Sequence record: MT150133.1
Strand: one strand, 5' to 3'
Length of the DNA stretch: 64,000 bases
DNA from: Enterobacteria phage vB_EcoM_IME540
The position numbers were made by a program, and so were the translations under genes. Positions 963 to 57,924 of the stretch are shown one piece after another (positions within the stretch are counted from its first letter, which is position 1; every line of letters begins with the position of its first letter). The notes under the pieces are model-generated. The model was not told where the DNA came from. It ran no database searches and was given only the letters and a program-made list of their open reading frames with translations.

Positions 963-1552
963 TTACGGCATTCCTCAATAAACTCATTTAAATTCCGTTT
1001 GATTTTACCTTCGTCGTAAAGACGTTGTTGACGACGTAAACGCCATGGCATTTCAATAGCCAAGCACCAAATACTTAAAGCAGCGCCAGCTGTGAAAAGG
1101 TTCATTAATCCAGCACCAATAATAGTTCGTTCTAGCGCATCATTCCAGTTAGCATCGATTAAAAATGAACTCAACACTAACATTGGAAGTAAAGTAATAA
1201 AATATGCTACAACATATCGTCTGAACGTAAGCCATTCAGTATCGATGAGCTTAGCCTTTCCATCTTGGAGACAAATATACTTATCGTCAGTGCGGGTGAT
1301 TTTCTTTACTGGTTGCCAGCCGTTTACGATATAGCCCATTTTATATTCCTCAATTAAAAGCTGTTTCATTTCGGCAGTACAACCTGACCAATCTATTGTA
1401 CTGGCTGAAATTCCTTCATCACCGTCATCGATATTTCGCCAGGACTTTTTAATAATCATATGTTCACCACTTGGGATAATAATTCCAGCATTTTCCGACC
1501 GACGGATGAAGTTTGTATCAATACCCATACAACCGGGTTCATAAAGGGCCAT
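959..1552 (-). CDS. hypothetical membrane protein, 197 aa, with C-terminal RRQQR...NEFIEECRK tail
   Basis: TAATG overlap with upstream gene; hydrophobic segments YFITLLPMLVLSSFLI and IIGAGLMNLFTAGAALSIWCLAI. Confidence 0.6.
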   Translation of the reverse strand: MALYEPGCMGIDTNFIRRSENAGIIIPSGEHMIIKKSWRNIDDGDEGISASTIDWSGCTAEMKQLLIEEYKMGYIVNGWQPVKKITRTDDKYICLQDGKAKLIDTEWLTFRRYVVAYFITLLPMLVLSSFLIDANWNDALERTIIGAGLMNLFTAGAALSIWCLAIEMPWRLRRQQRLYDEGKIKRNLNEFIEECRK

Positions 1553-2241
1553 TACCAGCCCTCCATAGGGAATTCCAGATATACTTGAGCATTAACGCGG
1601 ATTTCATTAGTAATCTTTTTAACTCGGTCGGTATTACGAGACACACGACCAAACCAGCGCCAACCGTTACTTACTGCACGAGAACCTGTATGCCATGTCT
1701 GCCAATCAAACTGGAGCAACGTGCGGTCGGGGGCATCCCACTTGGTTAATTCATTAGACTCAATTTTTTCCAGAACTTCTTTATGCCACTGGCGATAGAT
1801 AAGTTCGCCTTCAGGAATCTGACTGAATTGTGCAGTTCCGGTTGCAAAATGAGTAGGACACACATCAGCGTTAACAAGACCAAGAATATGTTCAGAATGG
1901 TATCGAGGATTATCATAATCAGGTTGCCCTGCGGTAATAAAGTGTTGACCCACCGGAATATCCGGGCGTGGTACATCATCATGGTGGAAGCCTGGAATTG
2001 CAGGGTACCAGCCAGGCATTAACATGTGTACACGGGAATCAAATACAATATCAGGGCCACATTGCCAATCTTCAGGCAGGTTTTCAATAAAGCTACGAGT
2101 AATAGGACCGCCATGTTTATGAGCAAAATAAGCATCGCAATTAAAGAACATAGGCTCATTTTTAATCATATCATTACTGATATCTTGAGCAAAACCACCT
2201 ACTGCACGAGCTTTAGAATTAAAAATTTTTGGACCGTTCAT
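1552..2241 (-). CDS. hypothetical protein, 229 aa
   Basis: Long ORF in operon context; His/Asp-rich segment PGFHHDDVPRPD...HSEH could be a metal site; no family recognised. Confidence 0.6.
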   Translation of the reverse strand: MNGPKIFNSKARAVGGFAQDISNDMIKNEPMFFNCDAYFAHKHGGPITRSFIENLPEDWQCGPDIVFDSRVHMLMPGWYPAIPGFHHDDVPRPDIPVGQHFITAGQPDYDNPRYHSEHILGLVNADVCPTHFATGTAQFSQIPEGELIYRQWHKEVLEKIESNELTKWDAPDRTLLQFDWQTWHTGSRAVSNGWRWFGRVSRNTDRVKKITNEIRVNAQVYLEFPMEGW

Positions 2242-2255
2242 AATATTTTCCTCAC

Positions 2256-2468
2256 TTACTTTTTGTTGAAAAAGTACATTTTACCTTTAGGGGATAAGGA
2301 TACACGAAGTGCGTTACCAATACCAACTGAACATTTAACCAGGTCAGCAGATTTCAATTCACCAAATGCTTGACGAAGGTCACCGTCACGAGTGTTAACC
2401 ATCAGGCATTTAGCACCAGCTGCACGAACTTCGTTTAACATGTTGATTGCTTGGTTAGAAAGTTTCAT
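2256..2468 (-). CDS. hypothetical protein, 70 aa
   Basis: Start moved to internal ATG 2468-2466 with RBS GGAG (leader ...GGAGAATAAA-ATG) directly downstream of an early promoter cassette. Confidence 0.5.
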   Translation of the reverse strand: MKLSNQAINMLNEVRAAGAKCLMVNTRDGDLRQAFGELKSADLVKCSVGIGNALRVSLSPKGKMYFFNKK

Positions 2469-2505
2469 TTTATTCTCCATTTCACTCTGTTGTTTTGATA
2501 GGTCT

Positions 2506-2534
2506 ATAGTATCACACCTATAGACCTTGTACAC
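2506..2534 (-). promoter_or_regulatory. sigma70-type early promoter cassette (-35 GTGTAC, 17-bp spacer, -10 TACTAT) with 10-bp inverted repeat AGGTCTATAG/CTATAGACCT
   Basis: Minus strand ...GTGTACAAGGTCTATAGGTGTGATACTATAGACCTATCAAAACAACAGAGTGAAATGGAGAATAAA-ATG. Confidence 0.55.
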
Positions 2535-2546
2535 TGTTTTGTGCAA

Positions 2547-3506
2547 TTATTTTTCGAAAGGACGAATTAAATGTTGGTTACGCTTAAACCGTTCAATGTA
2601 GTCGTTTTCACCTAAAGTCTTGTACATATTAACCACAGCTTGGTAGTTTTCCCATGCATAAGTGCGGAACCAACCTGAAGTGATTGAGGTGCACACTTTC
2701 TCAAGGGCCATATAGAAACTTAATGATGGTGAAATATTGAAGTCATTAGGAACCTGTGAACGTTCTAGTGCCAGGACACAAGTTTCTTCATACACACCAG
2801 CCAGTTTAATAGCTTCAGGCAAAGCCTCGAACTTCTCACGAGAGGTCATGACTTCAGAACCTTCCTTCATATAAAAGGTATATGCAGGGCGCCCTGCCAA
2901 TGCCACTGCTTCATGGATAGAGTCGTGGTCCAGAGTATAAATGGGATCATTAAAGAACGATGATTTGTTTACATCCAATTTAGGGTGGGAATAGCTCAAC
3001 GTTTCTTTTTGACGTTGCAACATAATTTCCTGGAGTTCTTCGTTAAGGGTGATACCTTTATTACGAAGGTATTTGATGTGGGACATGGTTTTCAAGAAGA
3101 ACGGATTATTCTTCAAGAAACGATGGGAGGTTTTGATAGCCAGACAGATATCAGGGGTTGCCCAATAGAAACCTGTAAGACGGTCCTTTTTAATATGATT
3201 TTCGGCATATTTCAGGAGACGATAACTTGAGGTGAAATCTTCGTCTTGAAGCTCACCGGTAATTTCTCGTACGTTAGTCAGGGCACGAACGATATAAGCT
3301 TCAAAATAGGTTTCTTTACCATTGTACATGCATTTAAAAGCCTGGACATCAGGGTTATCCACAGGAACATGGGCACCAAACATCCGAGCTTTAAAGTGAT
3401 TCCATGAGCCTTGGTCGGCAATGAAATCCCAATCAGAATTTTCGATATGCTTACTTTCAATCAGACCAGCGTGGTGCAGTGCACGAGAACCAATAACTAA
3501 CATCAT
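2547..3506 (-). CDS. hypothetical protein, 319 aa; possible Pol-beta-type nucleotidyltransferase-like motif
   Basis: Start at ATG 3506-3504 with RBS GAGGAAA; N-terminal IGSRALHHAGLIESKHIENSDWDFIAD loosely resembles the hG[GS]...DxD signature. Confidence 0.6.
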   Translation of the reverse strand: MMLVIGSRALHHAGLIESKHIENSDWDFIADQGSWNHFKARMFGAHVPVDNPDVQAFKCMYNGKETYFEAYIVRALTNVREITGELQDEDFTSSYRLLKYAENHIKKDRLTGFYWATPDICLAIKTSHRFLKNNPFFLKTMSHIKYLRNKGITLNEELQEIMLQRQKETLSYSHPKLDVNKSSFFNDPIYTLDHDSIHEAVALAGRPAYTFYMKEGSEVMTSREKFEALPEAIKLAGVYEETCVLALERSQVPNDFNISPSLSFYMALEKVCTSITSGWFRTYAWENYQAVVNMYKTLGENDYIERFKRNQHLIRPFEK

Positions 3507-3525
3507 AATATTTTCCTCAGTAAAC

Positions 3526-3765
3526 TTAAATTTCAGCGACGTAATCGTTATGCAATTCCCACATATCATCAGAATTATTCTTAATGATAGGAATTATCTC
3601 ATTAGAGATTTCTTCAGCATAAGGGTCATTGATACAGTGGGCATCTTCAAAACGAACACCGTAATCAGACTTCTTATAAGAGAAGCCATAAATCTTTTTA
3701 AACTTGGCGCGAGTAATGCGTACCGGTTCATTAGACTTATCGGACATCGGAGCGTAATACCACAT
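3526..3765 (-). CDS. hypothetical protein, 79 aa
   Basis: ATG 3765 preceded by RBS GAGGAG in conserved leader ACACAAACATGAGGAGAACAT. Confidence 0.55.
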   Translation of the reverse strand: MWYYAPMSDKSNEPVRITRAKFKKIYGFSYKKSDYGVRFEDAHCINDPYAEEISNEIIPIIKNNSDDMWELHNDYVAEI

Positions 3766-3792
3766 ATGTTCTCCTCATGTTTGTGTAGGGTA

Positions 3793-3821
3793 ATAGTAAC
3801 ATGATTTTCTAGAGTTGTACA
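3793..3821 (-). promoter_or_regulatory. early promoter (-35 TGTACA, -10 TACTAT) with conserved leader
   Basis: Minus strand TGTACAACTCTAGAAAATCATGTTACTATTACCCTACACAAACATGAGGAGAACAT-ATG; leader near-identical to the one at 62501-62557. Confidence 0.45.
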
Positions 3822-4138
3822 TCACTTCTGCAATATTCTAAAAATAATTTATCATTGTCTACTGTATCCCAACGACGCCAAGACGGGTTCCAGACCAAAG
3901 CGTTGTCACCACAATCATTGAGCTTAAAATGGTCGTAGTACATAGCTATGTGTCTAGTCTCGTCACCAGAGAACCCCAGTATAGGCTCACCGTGGGTGTG
4001 ATACATATGATGGTGCATTGAGAGGTCGCATTTGTAAAACATCTCACGTTTACCACGAACGAACAAGAAGGCCTGTCCATTCATATAGAATTCTTTATTT
4101 GTTTTCAAAAGATATTTGAATACTGAATCTTTATGCAT
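3809..4138 (-). CDS. hypothetical protein, 109 aa, His-rich (MHHHMYHTHGE)
   Basis: Start at internal ATG 4138-4136 with strong RBS AGGAGGA. Confidence 0.5.
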   Translation of the reverse strand: MHKDSVFKYLLKTNKEFYMNGQAFLFVRGKREMFYKCDLSMHHHMYHTHGEPILGFSGDETRHIAMYYDHFKLNDCGDNALVWNPSWRRWDTVDNDKLFLEYCRSDVQL

Positions 4139-4168
4139 AAGTCCTCCTACCACATCCATGTGGTTAAA

Positions 4169-4396
4169 TTATTTTCCTAACGAAATACGAGTAGGTTTTT
4201 TACCGAAATAGTCTTCATAAGAACCATCTAAACGACCTGCTTTAGACCGACAATATGAATCGTACTTTTTGTAATAAGTCATCTCAGTATTATAACGCGG
4301 GTGTCTATCAGCCATAATAATACTTAACGGCCAACCTTTGGCATAATCGCGAAGACCATTTATTTTACGAATGTATCTTTTCTTTAATTTTAGCAT
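4169..4396 (-). CDS. possible small basic protein, 75 aa
   Basis: ORF only; no convincing RBS at either candidate ATG. Confidence 0.3.
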   Translation of the reverse strand: MLKLKKRYIRKINGLRDYAKGWPLSIIMADRHPRYNTEMTYYKKYDSYCRSKAGRLDGSYEDYFGKKPTRISLGK

Positions 4397-4614
4397 GAGC
4401 TCGGATACCAGATTTTACCATCGGCCTGAGCAACGAAGGTGCGTCCAGCTTCTTCACCATAACAAGAGCTATTCAGCCAATCTTCGAGACGAACTTCACC
4501 GTCATAATCGTCGAGCTCAACACCAAAACTTTGAGCAGAAGCCATATCTTTTACTTTCTTATACAGTGCAGCCAGTTCAAGTGCGGCTTTTTCTAATTCA
4601 TTAATATCAGTCAT
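4390..4614 (-). CDS. small acidic protein, 74 aa, member 1 of a four-gene paralog array (C-terminus WYPSSC)
   Basis: Start at internal ATG 4614-4612 with RBS AAGGTGA; shares N-terminal MTDINELEK and C-terminal W-x-SS-x-C pattern with neighbours. Confidence 0.55.
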   Translation of the reverse strand: MTDINELEKAALELAALYKKVKDMASAQSFGVELDDYDGEVRLEDWLNSSCYGEEAGRTFVAQADGKIWYPSSC

Positions 4615-4624
4615 TTTTATCACC

Positions 4625-4837
4625 TTAGCAAGACATAGAGGATGTAAACCAGAAACCTTCACCATCTGGGATACCGTAATCATCACGGGCCCATTCATAA
4701 TCATCATATTCCGGATTCTTTGGAGAAATGTATTGTCCACGACCAGAAACATGGAACTCTTCACCCGTTTCGTCAGCCACGGCCTGGCCTTTACGTACTA
4801 ATTCGCGGATTTGTTTTTCAATTTCATCAATAGTCAT
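4625..4837 (-). CDS. small acidic protein, 70 aa, paralog 2 (C-terminus WFTSSMSC)
   Basis: RBS AAGGAAA upstream of ATG 4837; N-terminal MTIDEIEK. Confidence 0.55.
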   Translation of the reverse strand: MTIDEIEKQIRELVRKGQAVADETGEEFHVSGRGQYISPKNPEYDDYEWARDDYGIPDGEGFWFTSSMSC

Positions 4838-8795: not shown

Positions 8796-9461
8796 TCAAA
8801 ATTTTATTTTACGGCCTTTATTCCAACCTTCAGGAATAATATCCGTTTTGTTAATACGTTTAGAAACTTTTTCTTCTAAAGAATGAATCCACATTTTTCC
8901 ATATCCGGAATTATTTTCACCTTGTTGGTGTTTATTTCTGGCGTGAGATTCTTTCATTTTATTTTTGGTTTCATCTGAATGGGTCTTACCCAAGAAAGAT
9001 TTAGTATTTGAAAATTTCTCTCTATACTTAGGATTATCCCAAAGTTGTTTAAACCTTTCCGAACCCATTTTACGATATTTTTCTTTAAGGTCTGGGTCGT
9101 TCTCAAATCTGGTTTTAAAAGCGGCAACTCCTTTTAAGGAAGCTTCTTTCTTTTTATCTAAATATTCTTCAGTGTTTAAATGGTCCCAACCACCTTCACC
9201 ACCTAATTTCAAATTATAAACATCAGGGCGCTTTAAAAACTCTTCAGTCACAATATTCTTTTCTGACTCAAACATAGAGGTTTTATCGTCAAAGAACTCT
9301 AATATTTCTTTAGAGAAATTTTCTATACCGTATTTGACCTGGGCCCTTTTTAAGAGTTTACCAGAACCAAAATATGCATCATTCAAATTTTCGGTTGAAT
9401 GGGCGCCTATATAGATTTTATTATTAATTTTGTTTGTTATTTTATAAGTGTAATGGAACAT
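8796..9461 (-). CDS. segB: GIY-YIG homing endonuclease, segB-like, inside the tRNA cluster
   Basis: 221 aa; N-terminal YKITNKINNKIYIGAHST...GSGK motif; basic NUMOD-like C-terminus; RBS AGGAGA; same position as T4 segB. Confidence 0.8.
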   Translation of the reverse strand: MFHYTYKITNKINNKIYIGAHSTENLNDAYFGSGKLLKRAQVKYGIENFSKEILEFFDDKTSMFESEKNIVTEEFLKRPDVYNLKLGGEGGWDHLNTEEYLDKKKEASLKGVAAFKTRFENDPDLKEKYRKMGSERFKQLWDNPKYREKFSNTKSFLGKTHSDETKNKMKESHARNKHQQGENNSGYGKMWIHSLEEKVSKRINKTDIIPEGWNKGRKIKF

Positions 9462-10310: not shown

Positions 10311-10718
10311 TTAACCCTCGTCTACAATAGTATGGGTATTAGCATTAACAATCTGCCACCAGTCACAGTCAAAACGATTAGAACCGTAACGAGGCTTTTT
10401 CTCATTTTCGTTAATAATATCACGTAGTTCGTCTTCAGAAAATGCTTTAGCGATTAAATCGGTATAGCCGCCACGTGGATAATAGTTATCACCTGCGAAC
10501 AGAAGGAAATTTACTTTACCAGAAGGAACATATGCTTCCTTAGGATACTTGTTTCCTGCTTGGTCTACCACTTCAATATAACGGTAAGGAATATCGGTAC
10601 TTTCAACCCATTGCCAAGCTGCAGCAGGGGATTCAAAAGCATCTACACCTAAACGGTTATCTTCATCTTTAGACGGATTATTTTCATAATCCGCATATAC
10701 ATAATATTCAATGTTCAT
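10311..10718 (-). CDS. hypothetical protein, 135 aa
   Basis: ORF with TAATG overlap to the upstream gene. Confidence 0.55.
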   Translation of the reverse strand: MNIEYYVYADYENNPSKDEDNRLGVDAFESPAAAWQWVESTDIPYRYIEVVDQAGNKYPKEAYVPSGKVNFLLFAGDNYYPRGGYTDLIAKAFSEDELRDIINENEKKPRYGSNRFDCDWWQIVNANTHTIVDEG

Positions 10719-10903
10719 TATTCACCTTTAGAGATTTTATCCATAACGAAAGAAATTGAACCAATTAAGAATGCCACTACTAAAGAGATTATATTCTCGG
10801 AAGTTGAAAGCATATCGAGCATGAATCCTGCAAACATACTAAAGCCAAAAGCAGTAACAGCGGCCAGTGCAGTAACATTTCTAATTAATTCACAAGGTTT
10901 CAT
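10718..10903 (-). CDS. small hydrophobic membrane protein, 61 aa
   Basis: Track ORF begins at TTG; real start ATG 10903-10901 with RBS GGAG in leader GGAGAATAAA-ATG; two hydrophobic stretches. Confidence 0.5.
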   Translation of the reverse strand: MKPCELIRNVTALAAVTAFGFSMFAGFMLDMLSTSENIISLVVAFLIGSISFVMDKISKGE

Positions 10904-10939
10904 TTTATTCTCCAATCACTCATTTGTTTTGATAGGGCT

Positions 10940-10969
10940 ATAGTACCATCACTAAAGCCCGTTGTAAAC
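10940..10969 (-). promoter_or_regulatory. early promoter cassette (-35 GTTTAC, -10 TACTAT) with inverted repeat GGGCTATAG/CTAAAGCCC
   Basis: Minus strand GTTTACAACGGGCTTTAGTGATGGTACTATAGCCCTATCAAAACAAATGAGTGATTGGAGAATAAA-ATG. Confidence 0.55.
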
Positions 10970-10971
10970 AA

Positions 10972-11244
10972 TTATTTTAAATAAATTGCATATTTTTTAT
11001 AACCAGCCGTCTCGTGGCGCAGCCCTTTTTCATTAGCAAAACGTTCAATATTGTTAATTTGATTCTGGTCGAGTTCTGAAGTATCAAATACAAAAAAGTT
11101 TCGCTTATTGCCTAAAGTTACGTGATTAGTCAAATCGATGTTATAGAGATGATTTATATTATCAATCATGGTCTTAACAGATTTGTTAATTTTTACTTCT
11201 TCATTAAGAATAGATTCAGCGATAAATTCTTGGTATGATTTCAT
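10972..11244 (-). CDS. internal-protein-like, 90 aa, with N-terminal capsid-targeting sequence MKSYQEFIAES
   Basis: N-terminus matches the T4 internal protein (IPI/IPII/IPIII) capsid-targeting sequence MKTYQEFIAEA; body differs from the neighbour. Confidence 0.65.
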   Translation of the reverse strand: MKSYQEFIAESILNEEVKINKSVKTMIDNINHLYNIDLTNHVTLGNKRNFFVFDTSELDQNQINNIERFANEKGLRHETAGYKKYAIYLK

Positions 11245-11245
11245 T

Positions 11246-11470
11246 TTATTCAGCGCCAGCAGCTTTCAAAAGTTTTTTAAGATTGGCTATGCCGCCAGCA
11301 GAAAACGTGACCTTGCCACCTTTTTCATTGATAGAGCCAGTCAATTTAGCAAGCTTATCACTAGGGACTTTTTTAAAATCAGCCAGTGTGCCATCAAAGG
11401 TTTTTGTAACAATTGGCAGTTCATCTTCATGTCTTTTAGCTTCGGTGATAAATTCTTGATAAGTTTTCAT
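11246..11470 (-). CDS. internal-protein-like, 74 aa, with N-terminal capsid-targeting sequence MKTYQEFITEA
   Basis: Capsid-targeting-type N-terminus; early promoter cassette upstream. Confidence 0.65.
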   Translation of the reverse strand: MKTYQEFITEAKRHEDELPIVTKTFDGTLADFKKVPSDKLAKLTGSINEKGGKVTFSAGGIANLKKLLKAAGAE

Positions 11471-11507
11471 TTTGATTTCCGTTTGGTTAGTTTGTTTTGA
11501 TAGGTCT

Positions 11508-11536
11508 ATAGTATCATGCCTATAGACCTTGTAAAC
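11508..11536 (-). promoter_or_regulatory. early promoter cassette (-35 GTTTAC, 17 bp, -10 TACTAT) with 10-bp inverted repeat AGGTCTATAG/CTATAGACCT
   Basis: Minus strand GTTTACAAGGTCTATAGGCATGATACTATAGACCTATCAAAACAAACTAACCAAACGGAAATCAAA-ATG. Confidence 0.55.
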
Positions 11537-11547
11537 AACTTTTTAAA

Positions 11548-12240
<693 letters not shown>

Positions 12241-14973: not shown

Positions 14974-14981
14974 TATTTATA
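14974..14981 (-). promoter_or_regulatory. late promoter TATAAATA for gene 4 (divergent)
   Basis: Exact consensus on minus strand upstream of gene 4 start at 14948. Confidence 0.6.
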
Positions 14982-39154: not shown

Positions 39155-39838
39155 ATGATTACTAATACTCTATTTGAAATACCTATAACAAATCGTAACG
39201 TTTCTGCTTTTAAAAATCTTGGGTATCAAGTTAAAAGTGGGAGCTCCCATTTAATAAAATTAGAAGACTGCCCTGGAAAAATTGCTGTTACGTGTAAATG
39301 TGATAAATGTGGCACTTATTATACTGTAACAAAAGGGCGACTTAATGAAACCAATTCTAAGTTCTGTAAAGAGCATCGTTGGGAAGTCTATTCAGAAACA
39401 AGAAAAGAATATTGGAATTCTGATGAAGGCATAAAAATCCGTAAAACCAAAGGGCCTAAAATTTCTAAGTCTAAAAAAGGTATAAAGATTGAAGCTTGTT
39501 CAGGACCTAAAAACGGAAGATGGAATCCTAACAAATCTGAACGTAATAAATATTATTATTCAGTGAGGTCTTTTACTAATAAGACTTTTAAAGAAGAAGT
39601 TGATAATCTACCAAATAGACATCTAAGCGGGATATGTGGTGTTAAAGGAGCTTATCAATTAGACCATAGGGTATCTATCAAATATGGATTTGAAAATGGC
39701 GTCCCTCCCGAAATAATAGGACACATTTGCAATCTAGAAATGATTCCTTGGGAAAAGAATCGAAGTAAAGATTCTAAAAATAGTATAGATTTAGATATGC
39801 TATTCCATTTAATTGAAGAATATGATAGGAAACACTAA
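39155..39838 (+). CDS. HNH homing endonuclease inserted between genes 18 and 19
   Basis: 227 aa; HNH core QLDHRVSIKYGFENGVPPEIIGHICNLEMIPWEKNRSK; Cys cluster CKCDKCGTYY; no gene at this position in T4. Confidence 0.75.
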   Translation: MITNTLFEIPITNRNVSAFKNLGYQVKSGSSHLIKLEDCPGKIAVTCKCDKCGTYYTVTKGRLNETNSKFCKEHRWEVYSETRKEYWNSDEGIKIRKTKGPKISKSKKGIKIEACSGPKNGRWNPNKSERNKYYYSVRSFTNKTFKEEVDNLPNRHLSGICGVKGAYQLDHRVSIKYGFENGVPPEIIGHICNLEMIPWEKNRSKDSKNSIDLDMLFHLIEEYDRKH

Positions 39839-40400: not shown

Positions 40401-40982
40401 ATGTATTGTACTTACTTAACCATATACACGGGGTCTAAACTACCCCGTCGTTATATTGGCTCAACATACGTTGAAAGGATTCTCAAAGAAGGATATAATG
40501 GTTCTGTATTATCCCAAGCATATAAAAAGATTTGGAATCTAGAACGTAAAGAAAATCCGCACCTTTTCAAAACCAGAATTTTATCTTTATTTGAAACCGA
40601 TAAAGAAGCTCGTATAGCTGAGAAAGAGCTTCAAATAAAGTATAATGTAGTTAAATCTAAAAACTATATAAATATGTCATTAGCTCAGCCTGACGGGTTC
40701 TTTGGAATGTCTCGTAAAGGGATTCCAATGAGTGAACATGCCAAACAGCTACAAAGAGATTGTAGGTTAGGTAAAAAGAGGCCTGAACATTCTAAAGCTC
40801 TAAAAGGACGTAAGCGACCAGACCAAGCCAAAGCTATGTCTGGTGAAGGTAATCCGATGTTTGGTAAAGAACATCCGGCTAAAGGCAAAAAGATTAATCA
40901 GCCAAGGATGATTTGCCCTATCTGTGGTGTTGAATCAACTCGTTCGGCTATAACACGTTATCACAAACATGAAAATGAATGA
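40401..40982 (+). CDS. GIY-YIG-type homing endonuclease (seg-like) with NUMOD-like repeats and C-terminal zinc finger, inserted between genes 19 and 20
   Basis: 193 aa; N-terminal YLTIYTGSKLPRRYIGSTY; repeated basic GKKRPEHSKA / GKEHPAKGKK; CPICGV...H. Confidence 0.7.
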   Translation: MYCTYLTIYTGSKLPRRYIGSTYVERILKEGYNGSVLSQAYKKIWNLERKENPHLFKTRILSLFETDKEARIAEKELQIKYNVVKSKNYINMSLAQPDGFFGMSRKGIPMSEHAKQLQRDCRLGKKRPEHSKALKGRKRPDQAKAMSGEGNPMFGKEHPAKGKKINQPRMICPICGVESTRSAITRYHKHENE

Positions 40983-41039: not shown

Positions 41040-42614
41040 ATGGCAAACTTTAATACAATATTAAGTTTTCTTAAGCCATGGGCTAATGAAGACGAAAAAG
41101 AATATAAACAACAAATTAATAACAATTTAGAGTCTGTCACCGCACCTAAGCTTGATGATGGCGCTCGCGAAATTGAGACACAAGAGCAAAATATTCCTTA
41201 TAATGCTCTTATGCAACAGATGTTTGGTAGTAATGAGCCTGAAGTTAAAAATACCAGGGAACTTATTGATACCTACCGTAATTTAATGAACAACTATGAA
41301 GTCGACAATGCCGTACAGGAAATTGTGTCTGACGCTATTGTCTATGAGGATGATAAAGAAGTAGTTGCATTGAATTTAGACGGGACAGAATTTAGTCAAG
41401 CAATTAAAGATAAAATCTTGGCCGAATTCAGTGAAGTTTTAAACCTTTTAAATTTCCAACGTAAAGGTACTGACCATTTCCAACGCTGGTATGTAGACTC
41501 AAGAATTTTCTTTCATAAAATTATAAACCCTAAAAAAATGAAAGATGGCGTACAAGAGCTTCGTCGCTTAGACCCACGCCAAGTCCAATATATTCGTGAA
41601 ATCGTTACACGTATGGAAGATGGCGTTAAAGTTGTAGACGGATATCGCGAGTTTTTCGTTTATGATACAGGCCATGAAAGTTATTGCGCTGATGGACGCA
41701 TTTATTCAGCCGGGACTAAAGTTAAAATTCCTCGTGCTGCAGTGGTTTATGCTCATTCTGGATTATTAGATTGTTGTGGTAAAAACATCATTGGCTATTT
41801 GCAACGTGCTATTAAGCCTGCAAACCAGCTTAAATTGATGGAAGACGCAATGGTCATCTACCGTATTACACGTGCTCCTGACCGTCGTGTGTTTTATATC
41901 GATACAGGTAATATGCCTTCACGTAAGGCTGCAGCACAAATGCAACATATCATGAACACGATGAAAAACCGTGTGGTGTATGATGCTTCGACAGGTAAAA
42001 TTAAAAACCAACAACACAATATGTCCATGACTGAAGACTATTGGTTGCAACGTCGTGATGGTAAAGCGGTAACAGAAGTTGATACAATGCCAGGTGCTAC
42101 TGGTATGAGTGATATGGATGACGTTCTTTATTTCCGCACAGCACTTTACCGTGCGTTGCGTGTTCCTGAATCACGTATCCCTAGCGAGTCTAATTCTGGT
42201 GTTATGTTTGATGCCGGTACAGCAATCACTCGTGACGAATTAAAATTCTCTAAATGGATTCGTCAACTACAAAACAAATTTGAAGAAATTTTCCTAGACC
42301 CGTTAAAAACAAACCTCATTCTTAAAAAGATTATTACAGAAGATGAGTGGGAAAAGGAAATAAATAATATTAAAGTTACGTTTAACCGTGATAGCTATTT
42401 CAGTGAAATGAAAGATGCTGAAATCATGGAACGCAGAATCAATATGCTAACGATGGCTGAACCATTTATTGGTAAGTATATTTCACATCAAACGGCTATG
42501 AAAGATTTCCTCCAAATGACCGACGAAGAAATTAATCAAGAAGCTAAGCAAATTGAAGAAGAGTCTAAAGAGGCTCGTTTCCAAAACCCAGATGAAGAAG
42601 AAGAGGATTTCTAA
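41040..42614 (+). CDS. 20: portal vertex protein gp20
   Basis: 524 aa (T4 gp20 is 524 aa); conserved position. Confidence 0.95.
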
Positions 42615-42859
42615 TGGAAGATTTAATCGAAGCTATTAAATCAAACGACCTCGTAGCAGTTCGTAAAGCAGCAGCCCCGCTTATCGAATCTCGAGTAACC
42701 GCTTTGATTGAAGCCCGTAAAGCAGAAATTGCTCGCTCCGTTATGATTGAAGGCGAAGAAGCTGACGAAGATGACGAAGACGACGAAAAATCCGATAAAG
42801 CAGATAAGAAAGACAAAAAAGAATCTGACGATGCGGATGATGACGAGGACGACGAATAA
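42614..42859 (+). CDS. 67: prohead core protein gp67
   Basis: 81 aa with poly-acidic C-terminus; TAATG-coupled. Confidence 0.8.
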
Positions 42860-43287
42860 TGTTCCTTATCCCTGATGATTACGAATTAACTCTAGAAAGC
42901 GTAGAGGCCAAAATTCCAGAAGCACAGGGACGTTTTGCTGCTCTTTCTGAAGCGCTCGAGAAAAGCGATATAAATAATCTTGTAGAGAACATGATTGCTG
43001 AAGGCGATATCGAATGTGCTATCGCTCTTGGTTCTTTAAATGAATCAATGGCTCTTAACGAATTTATAGTTAAACACGTTTCCTCTAAAGGTGAGCTTAC
43101 TCGTACTAAAGATATTAAAACCCGTCAACGTAATGCGTTCCAAACGACAGGTTTATCTAAAGCAAAACGCCGTCAGATTGCTCGTAAAGCATCTAAAACC
43201 AAACGTGCTAATCCGTCTACTCAAGTACGTGCCGAACGTAAGCGTAAGAAAGCCCGTTCTAAACGTAAAGCTTTTGGACTCAACTAA
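42859..43287 (+). CDS. 68: prohead core protein gp68
   Basis: 142 aa with basic C-terminus; TAATG-coupled. Confidence 0.8.
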
Positions 43288-43922
43288 TGAAACCTGAATT
43301 GCTCATCGAACATTGGGGACAACCAGGTGAAATTATCGATGGGGTTCCTATGTTGGAATCTCATGATGGAAAAAATTCTGGGCTTGCTCCCGGCCTTTAT
43401 ATAGAAGGCATTTTCATGCAAGCAGAGGTAGTTAACCGTAATAAACGCCTTTACCCAAAACCTATTTTGGAAAAAGCCGTTGCCGATTATATGGCAGAAC
43501 AGGTTGCTACTAAACAAGCTTTAGGAGAATTAAACCACCCACCTCGTGCTAACGTTGACCCTATGCAAGCTGCTATCATTATTGAAGATATGTGGTGGAA
43601 AGGTAATGATGTTTATGGACGTGCACGTATCATCGAAGGTGACCATGGCCCTGGTGATAAACTAGCTGCAAATATCCGAGCTGGCTGGGTTCCTGGTGTT
43701 AGTTCTCGCGGTCTTGGTTCTTTAACTGAAACCAATAAAGGATATAAGCGTGTAAACGAAGGTTATAAATTAACCGTCGGTGTTGATGCAGTATGGGGAC
43801 CATCTGCTCCTGATGCTTATGTAACTCCGAAGCAAATTACAGAATCACAAACGGTAGAAACCGATACCAGTGCCGATGACGCCTTTATGGCTCTCGCAGA
43901 GGCCATGAAAAAAGCGTTATAA
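43287..43922 (+). CDS. 21: prohead core protease gp21
   Basis: 211 aa ...LIEHWGQPGEIIDGVPMLESHDGK...GELNHPPRANVDPMQAAIIIEDMWWKGNDVYGRARIIEGDHGPGDKLAANIRAGW, matches T4 gp21. Confidence 0.95.
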   Translation: MKPELLIEHWGQPGEIIDGVPMLESHDGKNSGLAPGLYIEGIFMQAEVVNRNKRLYPKPILEKAVADYMAEQVATKQALGELNHPPRANVDPMQAAIIIEDMWWKGNDVYGRARIIEGDHGPGDKLAANIRAGWVPGVSSRGLGSLTETNKGYKRVNEGYKLTVGVDAVWGPSAPDAYVTPKQITESQTVETDTSADDAFMALAEAMKKAL

Positions 43923-43952
43923 ATATTATTATCTAAACAACAGGACTACAAA

Positions 43953-44768
43953 ATGCTTAAAGAACAACTGATCGCCGAAGCACAGAATATTGATGCTTCC
44001 GTTGCTCTTGACAGTATTTTCGAATCAGTTAATATTTCTCCGGAAGCAAAAGAAACTTTCGGCACTGTATTCGAAGCTACCGTCAAGCAACACGCCGTGA
44101 AACTGGCTGAATCTCACATCGCTAAAATCGCTGAAAAAGCGGAAGAAGAAGTCGAGAAAAATAAAGAAGAAGCTGAAGAAAAAGCCGATAAGAAAATCCA
44201 AGAAGCTGCCGGTCGTTTCCTTGACCACGTTGCTAAAGAATGGATGGCTGAAAACCAGCTGGCTGTTGATAAAGGTATTAAAGCCGAACTGTTCGAATCC
44301 ATGTTGATGGGTATGAAAGAACTGTTTGTTGAACACAATGTGGTTGTTCCAGAAGAAGCAGTAGATGTTGTTGCTGAAATGGAAGAAGAACTCCAAGAGC
44401 AGAAAGATGAAACCGCTCGTCTGTTCGAAGAAGTTGGTAAGCGCGACGCGTATATTAATTACGTACAGCGTGAAGTTGCTGTTACGGAAGCAACTAAAGA
44501 CCTGACTGAATCCCAAAAAGAAAAAGTTAGTTCTCTGGTAGAAGGCATGGATTATTCCGATGCATTCGGTAAAAAAATTGGCGCTATTGTTGAAATGGTT
44601 AAAGGTCAATCTGACGTTGAAAACCCAATCACCGAAGCCGCTATAAATAAAAATGTAGACGATGCTGCGGCACTGAATTACATTTCAGAAGCAGTTGAAG
44701 AAAAAGGCGCTAAGCCTACCCTGTCCTTCGCGGACCTGTCTGCAATCGCAGCATCACGAATTTCTTAA
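43953..44768 (+). CDS. 22: prohead core scaffold protein gp22
   Basis: 271 aa, acidic coiled-coil protein; conserved position. Confidence 0.9.
   Translation: MLKEQLIAEAQNIDASVALDSIFESVNISPEAKETFGTVFEATVKQHAVKLAESHIAKIAEKAEEEVEKNKEEAEEKADKKIQEAAGRFLDHVAKEWMAENQLAVDKGIKAELFESMLMGMKELFVEHNVVVPEEAVDVVAEMEEELQEQKDETARLFEEVGKRDAYINYVQREVAVTEATKDLTESQKEKVSSLVEGMDYSDAFGKKIGAIVEMVKGQSDVENPITEAAINKNVDDAAALNYISEAVEEKGAKPTLSFADLSAIAASRIS
44642..44649 (+). promoter_or_regulatory. candidate late promoter TATAAATA for gene 23, inside the 3' end of gene 22
   Basis: Exact consensus ~140 nt upstream of gene 23 ATG; no consensus box in the short 22-23 spacer. Confidence 0.4.
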
Positions 44769-46766: not shown

Positions 46767-48050
46767 ATGGCAAAGATTAACGAATTACTGCGCGAGTCAA
46801 CAACTACTTCCAGCAACTCATTGGGTCGCCCTAATCTTGTTGCTTTGACCCGTGCTACAACCAAATTGATTTACCGTGATATTATCGCCGAACAACGTAC
46901 TAGCCAGCCTATTGCTGCACTGTATGGTGTCAAATATCTTACCCCTGATAATGAATTTAGTTTCCAGACAGGTGCCTCTTATGGTGGTGAAGTTGGTTCT
47001 AAAGACCGTGAAACTATCCCAGAACTCACAGATAAGGCCCAGGCGATTGCTCAGGGTGAATATTTCAAGTACCAGAATGTGGTTTATAAGGCTCTTAAAG
47101 CAAGCCCACTCGCGTCCACTAGCGCCACAGAATTGGCTGATGCTCTTCAAGAAGGTTTAGTGTCATTAACATGTCGTCTGGTTCCTGATGCTGCCCATAC
47201 CACTAAATTTGAAGCGAGTGATGTAGAAATCTCTGATGCTGTATTCCAGGTTAATAAATGGAATGCTCCGGTTAAGACCCGTAAATTGAAGACGGCTTTG
47301 ACTGTAGAATTAGCGCAGGATATGGAATCAAATGGCTTTGACGCGCCGGCGTTCTTAGAAGACCTCTTGGCTACAGTAATGGCAGATGAAATTAATAAAG
47401 ACGTTCTGCAATCTCTAATAACCGTATCCAAACGTTATAAAGTTACTGGTGTATCTGATAACGGCATCATCGATTTGTCTTATGACAGTGCTCCTGAATC
47501 TGCACGTAAACTTTATGAACTCGTTTGTGAGATGAATTCTGAAATCCAGAAAACTACTTCTTATTCTGGCACGTTTGTTGTGGCTTCAAGTCGTGTGGCT
47601 GCAATGCTTGCAGGTTCTGGCTGGTTAAAACATAAACCCGAAGATAATAATTGGCTTCCGGAAACTGCATACGGATATTTGTTGAATGGTCTGCCTCTGT
47701 TTTGTGACGTTAACAGTCCATTAGATTATGTTACCGTTGGTGTTAAAGAGAATTACGGCGGTAATGAAGTTGTCGGTTCTATTTTCTACGCTCCCTATAC
47801 CGAAGGCTTAGATTTAGATGACCAAGAACACGTCGGTGCTTATAAGGTTATTGTTGACCCGGATTCATTACAACCTTCTATTTCTCTGATGGTTCGTTAT
47901 GCACTATCAGCTAACCCGTACACCGTGGCTAAAGACGATAAAGAAGCTCGTGTTATCGATGCAACCAATATGGATTTAATGGCTGGACAGAGCAATATGT
48001 CTTATCTGGTTGGCGTTAAACTTCCGGCAATTATTTACGAGGCTGATTAA
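46767..48050 (+). CDS. 24: head vertex protein gp24
   Basis: 427 aa MAKINELLRESTTTSSNSLGRPNLVALTRATTKLIYRD..., matches T4 gp24. Confidence 0.9.
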   Translation: MAKINELLRESTTTSSNSLGRPNLVALTRATTKLIYRDIIAEQRTSQPIAALYGVKYLTPDNEFSFQTGASYGGEVGSKDRETIPELTDKAQAIAQGEYFKYQNVVYKALKASPLASTSATELADALQEGLVSLTCRLVPDAAHTTKFEASDVEISDAVFQVNKWNAPVKTRKLKTALTVELAQDMESNGFDAPAFLEDLLATVMADEINKDVLQSLITVSKRYKVTGVSDNGIIDLSYDSAPESARKLYELVCEMNSEIQKTTSYSGTFVVASSRVAAMLAGSGWLKHKPEDNNWLPETAYGYLLNGLPLFCDVNSPLDYVTVGVKENYGGNEVVGSIFYAPYTEGLDLDDQEHVGAYKVIVDPDSLQPSISLMVRYALSANPYTVAKDDKEARVIDATNMDLMAGQSNMSYLVGVKLPAIIYEAD

Positions 48051-49330
48051 TGTCTAAGATTGTAGACCTAATTAAAGAATCCACATTGACGGCTGCCAGC
48101 TCGGTTGGCCGTCCTGCTCTTCTTTCATACACCCAAGCAACTAATAAACGAATCTTTAAAGCCCTAGTTGCTGAACAAAAAACAAATCAACCGGTTGCTG
48201 CTCTGTATGGGGTACGTGTACTGAATCCTGACGACAAAATGACTTATCTTGGTGGAGCAACATTTGCGGGCCAGATTGGTATGACGGAACGTGAAAATAT
48301 TCCAGAATTTACTGATTCATCTACAGCTTATGCGGTCGGTGATATGTTCCAGTTTGAAAGCGTAGTGTTTAAAGTTCTAGAAGCATCTCCTTTCGCCGGA
48401 ACCACAGAAACCAACCTCAGCGAAGTTATTTCTGAAGCAGTGGCAGCCGGCCATATCCGTATGGCGTCGGATGCTGCTATTACTTCTAAATTTGAACAAG
48501 GCCATCCTGAAATTGCTGAAACCGGATTCCGTATCGACAAATGGCAATCTGAAGTTAAATCGCGTAAACTGAAAACTTCATTGACAGTCGAATTAGCCCA
48601 AGACCTAGAATCTAACGGGTTTAATGCTCCTAATTTCGTTGAAAATCTGCTAGGCATTCAAATGGCAGAAGAAATTAATAAGGATGTATTACAGTCATTA
48701 ATTACCGTGAGCTCTCGTTTTAAAGTCCAGGGTGTTTCTGAAAAGGGTGTATTAGACCTTACCAACCCTCGCTACGATAATGCCCAGGACCGTGCTCGCA
48801 CATTATATTATTATATGTGTGAGATGAACTCTGCCGTCCAACGACAGACTTCTTTTGCCGGGACTTATGCAGTAGCTAGTTCTCGTTGTGCTGCTATTCT
48901 CGCCGCCTCTGGTTGGGTTGAGAAAAAGGAAGACCAGGACGAATTGGCTTATGGTATATTAAAGAATGGCCTACCACTTTATGCTGATATGAATAGTCCA
49001 TGTGATTATGTTATTGTTGGTGTAAATGCCCAGATGGGTGAAGGACAGACGGTCGCATCTTTATATTATGCGCCTTATACGGAAGGTTTGAATGTGGTTG
49101 ACGAAGAAGGTGATACTTCAGTTGGTGAATTTAAGGTTATTGTTGACCCGGAAAGCTTACAACCTACAGTAGCATTGCTTGCTCGTTATGCATTGACTGC
49201 AAACCCTTATACCGTCGCTAAGGACGATAAAGAAGCCCGCATTATTGATGGTTCTGATATGGACAAAATGGCTAATCAAAGTCAATTGAGTTCTTATCTC
49301 GGCGTAAAATTACCGCCTTTAGAAAAATAA
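48050..49330 (+). CDS. second gp24-family head vertex paralog
   Basis: 426 aa MSKIVDLIKESTLTAASSVGRPALLSYTQATNKRIFKALVAEQKTNQP...; collinear with the upstream gp24 at roughly half of positions identical by eye; TAATG-coupled. Confidence 0.85.
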   Translation: MSKIVDLIKESTLTAASSVGRPALLSYTQATNKRIFKALVAEQKTNQPVAALYGVRVLNPDDKMTYLGGATFAGQIGMTERENIPEFTDSSTAYAVGDMFQFESVVFKVLEASPFAGTTETNLSEVISEAVAAGHIRMASDAAITSKFEQGHPEIAETGFRIDKWQSEVKSRKLKTSLTVELAQDLESNGFNAPNFVENLLGIQMAEEINKDVLQSLITVSSRFKVQGVSEKGVLDLTNPRYDNAQDRARTLYYYMCEMNSAVQRQTSFAGTYAVASSRCAAILAASGWVEKKEDQDELAYGILKNGLPLYADMNSPCDYVIVGVNAQMGEGQTVASLYYAPYTEGLNVVDEEGDTSVGEFKVIVDPESLQPTVALLARYALTANPYTVAKDDKEARIIDGSDMDKMANQSQLSSYLGVKLPPLEK

Positions 49331-56758: not shown

Positions 56759-57924
56759 GTTCAAAAACTATGCAGCGTGAAGGCTTTCCTAATATCAGTA
56801 TACGCCTTTACGAAGATTATGACGCCTGGTTAGAGCATCGTTTTGTTGAACTAGGCGCAACATTTACTACCCTAACAATGAGGGACGGTCTTTACGGAAG
56901 TAATGAAGGTTTGCTTCAGTTTTATGATGCAAAGAACCTTCATACCAAAATGGATGGTGAACAGATTATCCAGATTTCTGTTAAGAATGCCAACTCTGAA
57001 CGTACCCAGTCCAGAATTTATGGAAGCAAACACTTTGCAGTAGGAGTGGATTCAAAGGGCGACAATATCATAACAATACAACTCGCCCCAATCCACTTTT
57101 TAGAAAACCTTAAATTTAGTCGTATGTTCTTCCCGAGCGTACAGGAAACATTGACCGAAATGATTGGGGTGATTTATCAAGACCGTCCATTACTTGCTCC
57201 TCCTTTGAACGGGATAAACGTTTATGTTCCTAATGTCCCATGGTGCGATTCGATGGACCGTTATATGGAATTTGTACGTGAGGTAGGTTTGGCCGTTGAA
57301 TCTGATAAGTTTGTATTCGTATGGGAAGATATAGATGGTATTTCTATTATGGACTACGAATTTATGGTTAATCAAGAGCCAATTAATTTTGTGGTAGGTG
57401 AGCCGCGTTTAATAGGCCAATACGTTCAAGATATGGATACTCCTATCGCATTTGATTTTGAATGGTTAACTAAAGCCAACCAGCATTCCAGAAAGCCATA
57501 TGAAAACGCTACTATATACGCCCACTCTTTCTTAGACAAAAACGCCACACGAATTACTTTTGGCGATGGGCAAAACAGTATATTGGTTTCTCGCTCTGGC
57601 GGATATTCCGATTATACCTATCGAAATGGATATGAAGAAGCTGATAGATTAGTTACAATGGCCCAATACGACGGCTACGCGCATTGTAAGGTATACGGTA
57701 ACTTTGAACTAACTCCAGGCGATAAGATTAATTTCTATGACCCTAAAAACCAATTCCAATACGATTTTTATGTAGACGAAGTTATTCATGAAGTGAGTAA
57801 CAATACATCAATTACAAACCTTTATATGTTTACTAATGGTAAGCCTATTAAGATTGAAGAACCACCGAAGGTTAAAAATGAACTTAAAACTGATACTCCC
57901 TATCAAGAAAATAACGCTGGGTGA
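56755..57924 (+). CDS. 27: baseplate hub protein gp27
   Basis: 389 aa; ATGA-coupled; size and position match T4 gp27. Confidence 0.9.

Follow-up and report, generated by a model that had tools for sequence, protein, structure and literature searches.

The cleavage consensus of the gp21 protease, I-x-E, is known from studies of T4 head morphogenesis (Black, Showe, Steven). About 1000 molecules of internal proteins (IPs) are packaged per T4 head, embedded in the DNA (review), and their capsid-targeting sequence (CTS) has been reported to be enough to get foreign proteins packaged and processed in T4 (Mullaney & Black 1996, as cited in later literature). IPII and IPIII both begin with MKTYQEFIAE followed by Ala, while the N-terminus of IPI is more diverged (MKTFKEFTSTTTPVSTITE/A; the slash in this and the following sequences marks the cut). 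IPI inhibits the type IV restriction enzyme GmrS/GmrD, IPII inhibits the fused GmrSD/BrxU in strain ECOR21, and IPIII, required for plating on ECOR17, overcomes an unidentified defence there and is functional without the CTS. T-even IPs have been described as diverse defence proteins with the CTS as the sole common part (Rao and Black 2010). On the T4 reference, ipI is located between 57B (Acb1) and trna.4, and ipII and ipIII between denV and e; according to the PeSL papers, PeSL-like sequences at both variable IP loci were observed by Repoila et al. (1994). The names Ip8 and Ip9 date from 1994, from phage RB15. Outside the T4 group, the Dar proteins of phage P1 are packaged in the capsid, injected with the DNA, and protect from restriction, as stated in the abstract of the report (PMC12810830), which ties them to head morphogenesis and describes no T4-type CTS or gp21 cleavage. 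The Dar proteins are unrelated to Ip8 and Ip9 and use another packaging pathway.

The DNA analyzed here is a stretch of 64,000 nucleotides, referred to as the window, of Enterobacteria phage vB_EcoM_IME540 (MT150133.1). Two small open reading frames starting with MK(T/S)YQEFI(T/A)E, as noticed in the preliminary description, are indeed present, both on the minus strand, with one base between the stop of ip8 and the start of ip9 (TAAAATG):

11246..11470, minus strand: ip8, internal protein precursor of 74 aa, N-terminus MKTYQEFITEAKRHEDELP (MKTYQEFITEAKRHEDELPIVTK); PHROG 8765 'internal virion protein', 8.1e-27
10972..11244, minus strand: ip9, internal protein precursor of 90 aa, N-terminus MKSYQEFIAESILNEEVK (MKSYQEFIAESILNEEVKINK); PHROG 7673 'internal head protein', 6.5e-56

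By genome comparison the source phage is a Dhakavirus, a T4-like coliphage, the locus being 99.8% identical to that of Escherichia phage QL01 and 91-99% identical to that of other Dhakavirus genomes (JS98/IME08/VR5 group). The two open reading frames are identified by homology as Ip8 and Ip9, already-named T4-type internal head proteins. The PHROG 8765 match covers residues 1-72 of Ip8, that is, past the tag, and the PHROG 7673 match is full-length (residues 1-90 of Ip9 on a 90-position profile). The records of related phages carry the same names, 'Ip8' and 'Ip9 gene product' in QL01, ip8 ('similar to Ip8 of RB15') and ip9 in VR5, and 'Ip9' in IME08. Within the BLAST-compared residues 1-57, Ip8 is identical (100%) in QL01, PSD2002, and vB_EcoM_005, and 86% identical to Ip8 of RB15. 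Ip9 is 100% identical in PSD9 and UGJNEcP4, and 77% identical to Ip9 of RB15 (UniProt Q38376). The two families extend to hundreds of sequenced phages of E. coli, Shigella, Salmonella, and Klebsiella. The pairs of RB15 and of the JS98/IME08/VR5/QL01 group belong to the same families, are adjacent in the same arrangement, and show no material difference from the IME540 copies. The IME540 pair is a further copy of named genes, real, ordinary, and already known.

The gene order of the window is the same as in T4, 5-53-4-2-3-1-57A-57B-[ip8-ip9]-trna.4-trna.3-trna.2, and by this order the T4 ipI locus is occupied by Ip8 and Ip9 in place of IPI. Its boundaries and flanking elements are as follows:

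11548..12003, minus strand: 57B/Acb1 homologue, left boundary, at the T4 57B position; Pfam Acb1 (PF23474), 8.9e-59
11503..11535, minus strand: PeSL-like element 1, upstream of ip8; TG-extended early-type promoter TTTACA-16-TACTAT overlapping the inverted repeat GGTCTATAG/CTATAGACC
10935..10968, minus strand: PeSL-like element 2, directly downstream of the ip9 stop, ahead of trna.4; TTTACA-17-TACTAT with the repeat GGGCT/AGCCC
10718..10903, minus strand: trna.4 homologue, right boundary, at the T4 position; PHROG 1692, named trna.4 in QL01 and VR5

The cassette lies between two nearly identical promoter/inverted-repeat elements of the T4 early type, both with an upstream TG, and these elements align with those on either side of T4 ipI. 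The neighbouring Acb1 gene, pointed out in the preliminary description, is real by its Pfam match. As support for an effector role, however, its adjacency adds nothing and is uninformative, because 57B stands in the conserved T4 order and the neighbourhood is ordinary T4 synteny, not a defence island. There is no late promoter directly upstream of ip8, and T4 ipI is likewise without one; the closest minus-strand late box lies approximately 3.5 kb away (14974-14981).

In the window as a whole, the T4 late-promoter box TATAAATA was observed 20 times against 7.6 expected, mostly on the plus strand and in front of structural genes. Several mobile-type genes were also recorded. A GIY-YIG/NUMOD3 open reading frame lies near the tRNA region (8796-9461, minus strand; Pfam 3.8e-05). 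Two open reading frames around genes 19/20 (39155-39838 and 40401-40982, both plus strand) gave no Pfam match and were counted as mobile-endonuclease differences from QL01, in which an HNH endonuclease is annotated at the position of the second. The homing endonuclease located between genes 3 and 2 of QL01 (record 73116-73766) is absent from the window.

The N-termini of Ip8 (MKTYQEFITE) and Ip9 (MKSYQEFIAE) each agree at nine of ten residues with the tag MKTYQEFIAE of T4 IPII and IPIII. The identification of this sequence as the CTS of T4 internal proteins holds as a near-exact match to IPII and IPIII, and has to be qualified for IPI, of which the tag itself is more diverged. The targeting segments are predicted as follows:

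11441..11470, minus strand: Ip8 CTS, MKTYQEFITE; predicted gp21 cut after Glu10 (ITE/A)
11200..11244, minus strand: Ip9 targeting module with CTS MKSYQEFIAE (CTS-coding stretch 11215-11244); predicted cuts after Glu10 (IAE/S) and Glu15 (LNE/E)

In both proteins, the tag is closed at residue 10 by an I-x-E motif, and Ip9 carries a second site, of the L-x-E type, after Glu15; the (L/I)-x-E sites are motif-level evidence, the motif being common (0.032 per residue). After a cut at Glu10, mature Ip8 is predicted to begin at Ala11 (AKRHEDELPIVTK). Six-frame scanning of the 64-kb window with MK.YQEFI.E gave two matches only, Ip8 and Ip9, both at the start of open reading frames. A relaxed CTS motif gave one extra match at 57253, which falls on a methionine inside a gp27-type baseplate protein and was dismissed as chance. 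Tag residues M1, K2, F7, I8, and E10 are conserved in the alignments of both families, being invariant in that of Ip8, while the bodies diverge. The conservation of the tag in both families despite divergence of the bodies to approximately 70-75% indicates selection on the tag. In the AlphaFold2 models of both proteins, the tag forms an N-terminal helix of its own, with a linker of low confidence behind it (helix 4-13 and linker 13-15 in Ip8).

The window also includes genes for the prohead protease and the scaffolding core, as listed below:

42614..44768, plus strand: prohead core genes (gp67, gp68, gp21, gp22); Pfam and open reading frame calls
42614-42859, plus strand: gp67; Pfam GP67, 3.3e-18
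42859-43287, plus strand: gp68-sized open reading frame, assigned by size and by its place between gp67 and gp21
43287..43922, plus strand: gp21 prohead protease, the predicted remover of the CTS; Pfam Peptidase_S77, 6.4e-103
43953-44768, plus strand: gp22 scaffold; Pfam T4_CASP, 6e-90

The T4 cut sites are retained in gp23 (FLTE/AEIGGDHGY) and gp24 (LLRE/STTT) of the window. Two gp24-like vertex protein genes are located in tandem (46767-48050 and 48050-49330, plus strand), both labelled head vertex protein in QL01 and both with an N-terminal L/I-x-E site (LLRE/S and LIKE/S).

Taken together, the CTS, the I-x-E site, the position at the ipI locus, and the presence of gp21, gp22, gp67, and gp68 in the window argue by homology that Ip8 and Ip9 are very probably packaged, processed, and injected. 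By analogy with T4, ip8 and ip9 would each encode a precursor composed of the 10-residue targeting helix and an unrelated small cargo, and the tag would bring the precursors into the prohead's scaffolding core. Cleavage by gp21 after Glu10 in both, and possibly after Glu15 in Ip9, would then leave mature Ip8* (approximately 64 aa) and Ip9* (approximately 75-80 aa) in the head together with DNA. Upon injection with the DNA, both should be present ahead of any phage gene expression. No virion proteomics of Ip8 or Ip9 was found in the literature on JS98-group phages or on Ip8/Ip9. Among the entries listed in virion data for a Jiaodavirus there are peptides from an IPII homologue and none from Ip8.

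The bodies of the two proteins are unrelated to each other, in agreement with the preliminary description: BLASTP aligns residues 1-16 only, the PHROG families are different, and the predicted folds differ. Mature Ip8 is lysine-rich (pI approximately 9.6, net charge approximately +4), and its model gave weak KH-like fold matches. Cleavage at Glu10 would leave Ip9 nearly neutral. Its cargo domain was delimited as follows:

10975..11196, minus strand: Ip9 cargo domain, residues 17-90; compact fold of alpha-beta-beta-alpha-beta-beta type, in which the GNKRNFF hairpin is conserved

The AlphaFold2 model of Ip9 (mean pLDDT 89.4; 88-97 per 10-residue block within the body) confidently predicts the cargo to be a compact globular domain, which is not highly basic. 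The near-invariant residues of Ip9 include G45, N46, K47, R48, N49, F51, F53, R68, R76, and K83. No family in Pfam or NCBIfam reached the cutoff for Ip8 or Ip9, and the PDB sequence search was uninformative. Exhaustive phmmer search with mature Ip8 against 1.84 billion representative proteins gave its own family only, the multi-stretch matches to long repetitive proteins having been discounted. The mature bodies showed no sequence or fold likeness to IPI*, and no link by sequence or fold to any known inhibitor was found for either protein.

The content of the ipI locus differs among the relatives, Ip8 and Ip9 in IME540, Ip9 and Ip7 in Dhakavirus MX01, and IPI in T4. The order in MX01 is 57B-Ip9-Ip7-trna.4, each gene with its own promoter/hairpin element. 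The MX01 ip9 gene is a chimera (1290-1340 of the MX01 locus compared). Its promoter region and first 24 bases are those of the window's ip8, ip9 sequence follows, and the crossover lies within the common 12-base sequence CAAGAATTTATC coding for QEFI. The position of this joint implies that the CTS-coding DNA is a recombination joint besides a targeting signal, an observation which is possibly new. In QL01 a total of five CTS proteins were found, Ip8, Ip9, the Ip7-like gp112, an IPIII orthologue (87% identity to T4 IPIII), and gp115; IPI and IPII are absent from the QL01 genome.

The fifth CTS-bearing internal protein, gp115 of QL01 (4430-4828; 132 aa), is annotated as 'hypothetical', starts with MKTYNEFIAE/N, and has no Pfam match; its gene lies beside gene e, just upstream of the window start. 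A further trace was noted in Mosigvirus OLB35 (an UNVERIFIED record), in which an in-frame remnant (...ITLGS*QNFFIFDTYE...; 2411-2791) upstream of 'ip7' resembles the GNKRNFFVFDTSE segment of Ip9, broken by a stop. The remnant has the appearance of an Ip9/Ip7 mosaic that decayed or was rearranged at the ipI locus.

The distribution of the Ip9 body was examined by tblastn against annotated phages, and the body was found without the tag in unrelated phages. An Ip9-like open reading frame of 72 aa (51-53% identity) is present in Kagunavirus JSSK01 and one of 74 aa in Seuratvirus KS_S4. In Agtrevirus ChubbyThor the final 80 or so residues of gp130 (683 aa; PHROG 3867) form an Ip9-like domain (PHROG 7673 at 6.9e-9), and Ip7 of a Mosigvirus matches the C-terminal half of the Ip9 domain. 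Profile search added approximately 25 stand-alone Ip9-like clusters on contigs of 42-45 kb. The stand-alone homologues begin at a position aligned to Ip9 residue 17-20, which is where Ip9 cut at Glu15/16 would begin, and residues 1-16 of Ip9 are therefore regarded as a delivery add-on. In four out of four Kagunavirus-like genomes, the Ip9-like gene is the first after a divergent control region of approximately 480 bp. The Ip9 domain thus appears to work without the tag, at a position typical of first-expressed genes. Two settings of the Ip9 body without a CTS are possibly new observations, one at the head of the early genes in Kagunavirus genomes, the other at the variable C-terminus of the PHROG 3867 protein.

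In the T7 gene order, Ocr (gene 0.3) is the first gene to be expressed. Ocr is a restriction inhibitor, and the likeness to the CTS-less Ip9 homologues, each a small protein from the first gene expressed, is one of analogy. Ocr is an acidic DNA mimic, whereas Ip9 ranges from neutral to basic and has an alpha/beta fold, and the two are not homologous.

ChubbyThor, a Shigella phage of the Ackermannviridae (OL615013.1), encodes a head module of the T4 type, with a prohead protease among its genes. CTS-like N-termini were identified in gp9 (record 12197..; MKTFGDFIAE), gp128 (91211..90972; MKGFKDFLTE/A), and gp129 (91790..91221; MKPFLQYFKE/Q), and with weaker likeness in gp130 (93866..91866), from Met18 (MSKPNFLQFMQEKDQLDE/A). 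The gp130-129-128-127 cluster is syntenic with gp214-217 of Sajous1, which were detected in the published proteome of CsCl-purified Sajous1 virions (196, 32, 20, and 10 spectra, respectively) and read by the authors as a tail 'ferrojan horse' operon. Sajous1 gp214 and ChubbyThor gp130 have the N-terminal 192 residues in common (86% identity). The Ip9-like C-terminus is present in ChubbyThor gp130 and Kuttervirus pertopsoe_86 and absent from Sajous1 gp214 (loci compared: 2192-4243, 1491-3758, and 41642-44029, respectively); Sajous1 gp120 and gp29 were checked as counterparts of gp130 and rejected. This pattern, an effector-like architecture, suggests that the PHROG 3867 protein may be a virion-delivered protein in which the N-terminal part is conserved and the C-terminal cargo varies, the Ip9 domain being one version of the cargo. 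Motifs and synteny of the Ackermannviridae cluster suggest that CTS delivery could extend wider than the T-even phages. The supplementary text examined for Sajous1 gave no N-terminal processing peptides of gp214-216, and no paper linking 'capsid targeting' with Ackermannviridae was found in the literature searched. A homologue of ChubbyThor gp9, UDP0027 (AEM91906.1, MKTFGEFLTEWDG), was included in the gene library of Silas et al. and is CTS-like at its N-terminus, yet without the CTS flag from the authors (bioRxiv 10.1101/2023.04.06.535777, supplementary file 19).

With respect to function, the proposal that Ip8 and Ip9 are injected anti-defence effectors consists of two halves. Delivery is backed by the tag, the locus, and the gp21/scaffold genes, while the effector half is drawn from precedent. 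The precedent itself, the injection of T4 IPI and its inhibition of modification-dependent restriction, agrees with the literature on IPI and GmrS/GmrD. IPI shares with Ip8 and Ip9 the 57B-trna.4 locus, the flanking promoter/hairpin elements, an N-terminal propeptide ending in I-x-E, and small size. IPII and IPIII, packaged accessory proteins with counter-defence phenotypes, share the near-identical CTS and the cut after Glu10, and differ in locus (denV-e) and in their unrelated bodies. Given packaging, precedent and context make a counter-defence role of Ip8 and Ip9 fairly probable. Neutralization of host immunity in the first moments of infection, as by T4 IPI, IPII, and IPIII, would be their likeliest job, with a separate target for each. 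On balance, we slightly favour the reading of ip8-ip9 as a two-gene cassette of tagged, injected, and mutually unrelated cargos directed against early host immunity. The anti-defence idea is already published and is the standing hypothesis of the field. The position of the Ip9 domain as the first gene in Kagunavirus, and as the variable C-terminus of a protein with a virion-abundant Sajous1 orthologue, fits a host-directed and immediate-early role.

A 200-gene library (Silas et al., bioRxiv 10.1101/2023.04.06.535777) included both an IME08-type Ip8 (UDP0010, VUF55611.1) and an Ip9 (UDP0112, CAA84411.1), each flagged 'CTS', and no counter-defence or cell-death phenotype is reported for either homologue. 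The screen covered a subset of ECOR strains and few phages, so that this is a weak negative. It agrees, as does the lack of a detectable link of Ip8 and Ip9 to defence systems or inhibitors, with an injected protein that acts on a target other than immunity, either in taking over host transcription, translation, or the nucleoid early on, or in competition with co-infecting or resident phages. The weak KH-like matches of Ip8 and the basic residues K47, R48, R68, R76, and K83 of Ip9 would fit nucleic-acid binding, and the early operons headed by stand-alone Ip9 homologues are also the site of takeover genes. All the T4 internal proteins with an assigned phenotype are, however, counter-defence proteins, and presence/absence polymorphism among near-identical phages is typical of host-range accessory genes, not of core takeover functions. 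We consider such a non-immunity target rather unlikely.

A mainly physical role as components of the packaged chromosome (charge neutralization, DNA condensation, or ejection), without a particular target in the host, is less likely still. It is suggested by the abundance of internal proteins in T4 DNA, where their lysines contact DNA phosphates (review), and by the basic, lysine-rich character of mature Ip8. With Ip9 the expectation fails: the Glu10-cut form is near neutral, and the median net charge of CTS-bearing forms is +0.7 versus +2.5 for stand-alone forms. The idea that CTS-bearing Ip9 became more basic for co-packaging with DNA was thus rejected, and the comparison argues against a role of mere DNA coating. 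Furthermore, the Ip9 domain occurs without a CTS in phages where packaging is not expected, the ip8-ip9 cassette is dispensable and swapped among close relatives, and the phage keeps an IPIII orthologue able to fill any bulk role.

That the tag is vestigial or inefficient, with Ip8 and Ip9 being ordinary early cytoplasmic proteins made after infection, is very improbable; its support from the sole early sigma-70-type promoter directly upstream, the distant late box, the activity of host-supplied IPIII without the CTS, and the function of CTS-less Ip9 homologues as early genes elsewhere is outweighed by the conservation of the tag residues against divergent bodies and by the same promoter arrangement at T4 ipI, of which the product is packaged.

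A wider proposal may be put forward tentatively. The Ip9 cargo might be a mobile immediate-early effector domain used in three delivery modes, CTS-dependent injection in T-even phages, fusion to the variable C-terminus of an Ackermannviridae protein with a virion-abundant Sajous1 orthologue, encoded in a cluster with hitherto unrecognised T4-like targeting N-termini, and a place at the head of the early genes in Kagunavirus and Seuratvirus. Its target might then be a widespread first-response defence of enterobacteria, and Ackermannviridae might deliver internal proteins by a system that has so far escaped description and is a homologue of the T4 one.

Since injected internal proteins precede phage gene expression, they help to decide whether therapeutic T4-like phages plate on clinical strains. 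More than 30 IP variants are reported in the PeSL papers; only two of them, IPI and IPII, have known targets, and a third, IPIII, has a host-specific phenotype. Hundreds of phages carry Ip8 and Ip9, so that finding the targets of these two proteins would be useful. The presence of the Ip9 domain in three delivery contexts offers a more tractable route to function, and the modular history of the Ip9 cargo, together with the possible delivery system of Ackermannviridae, is the part of this locus most worth following.
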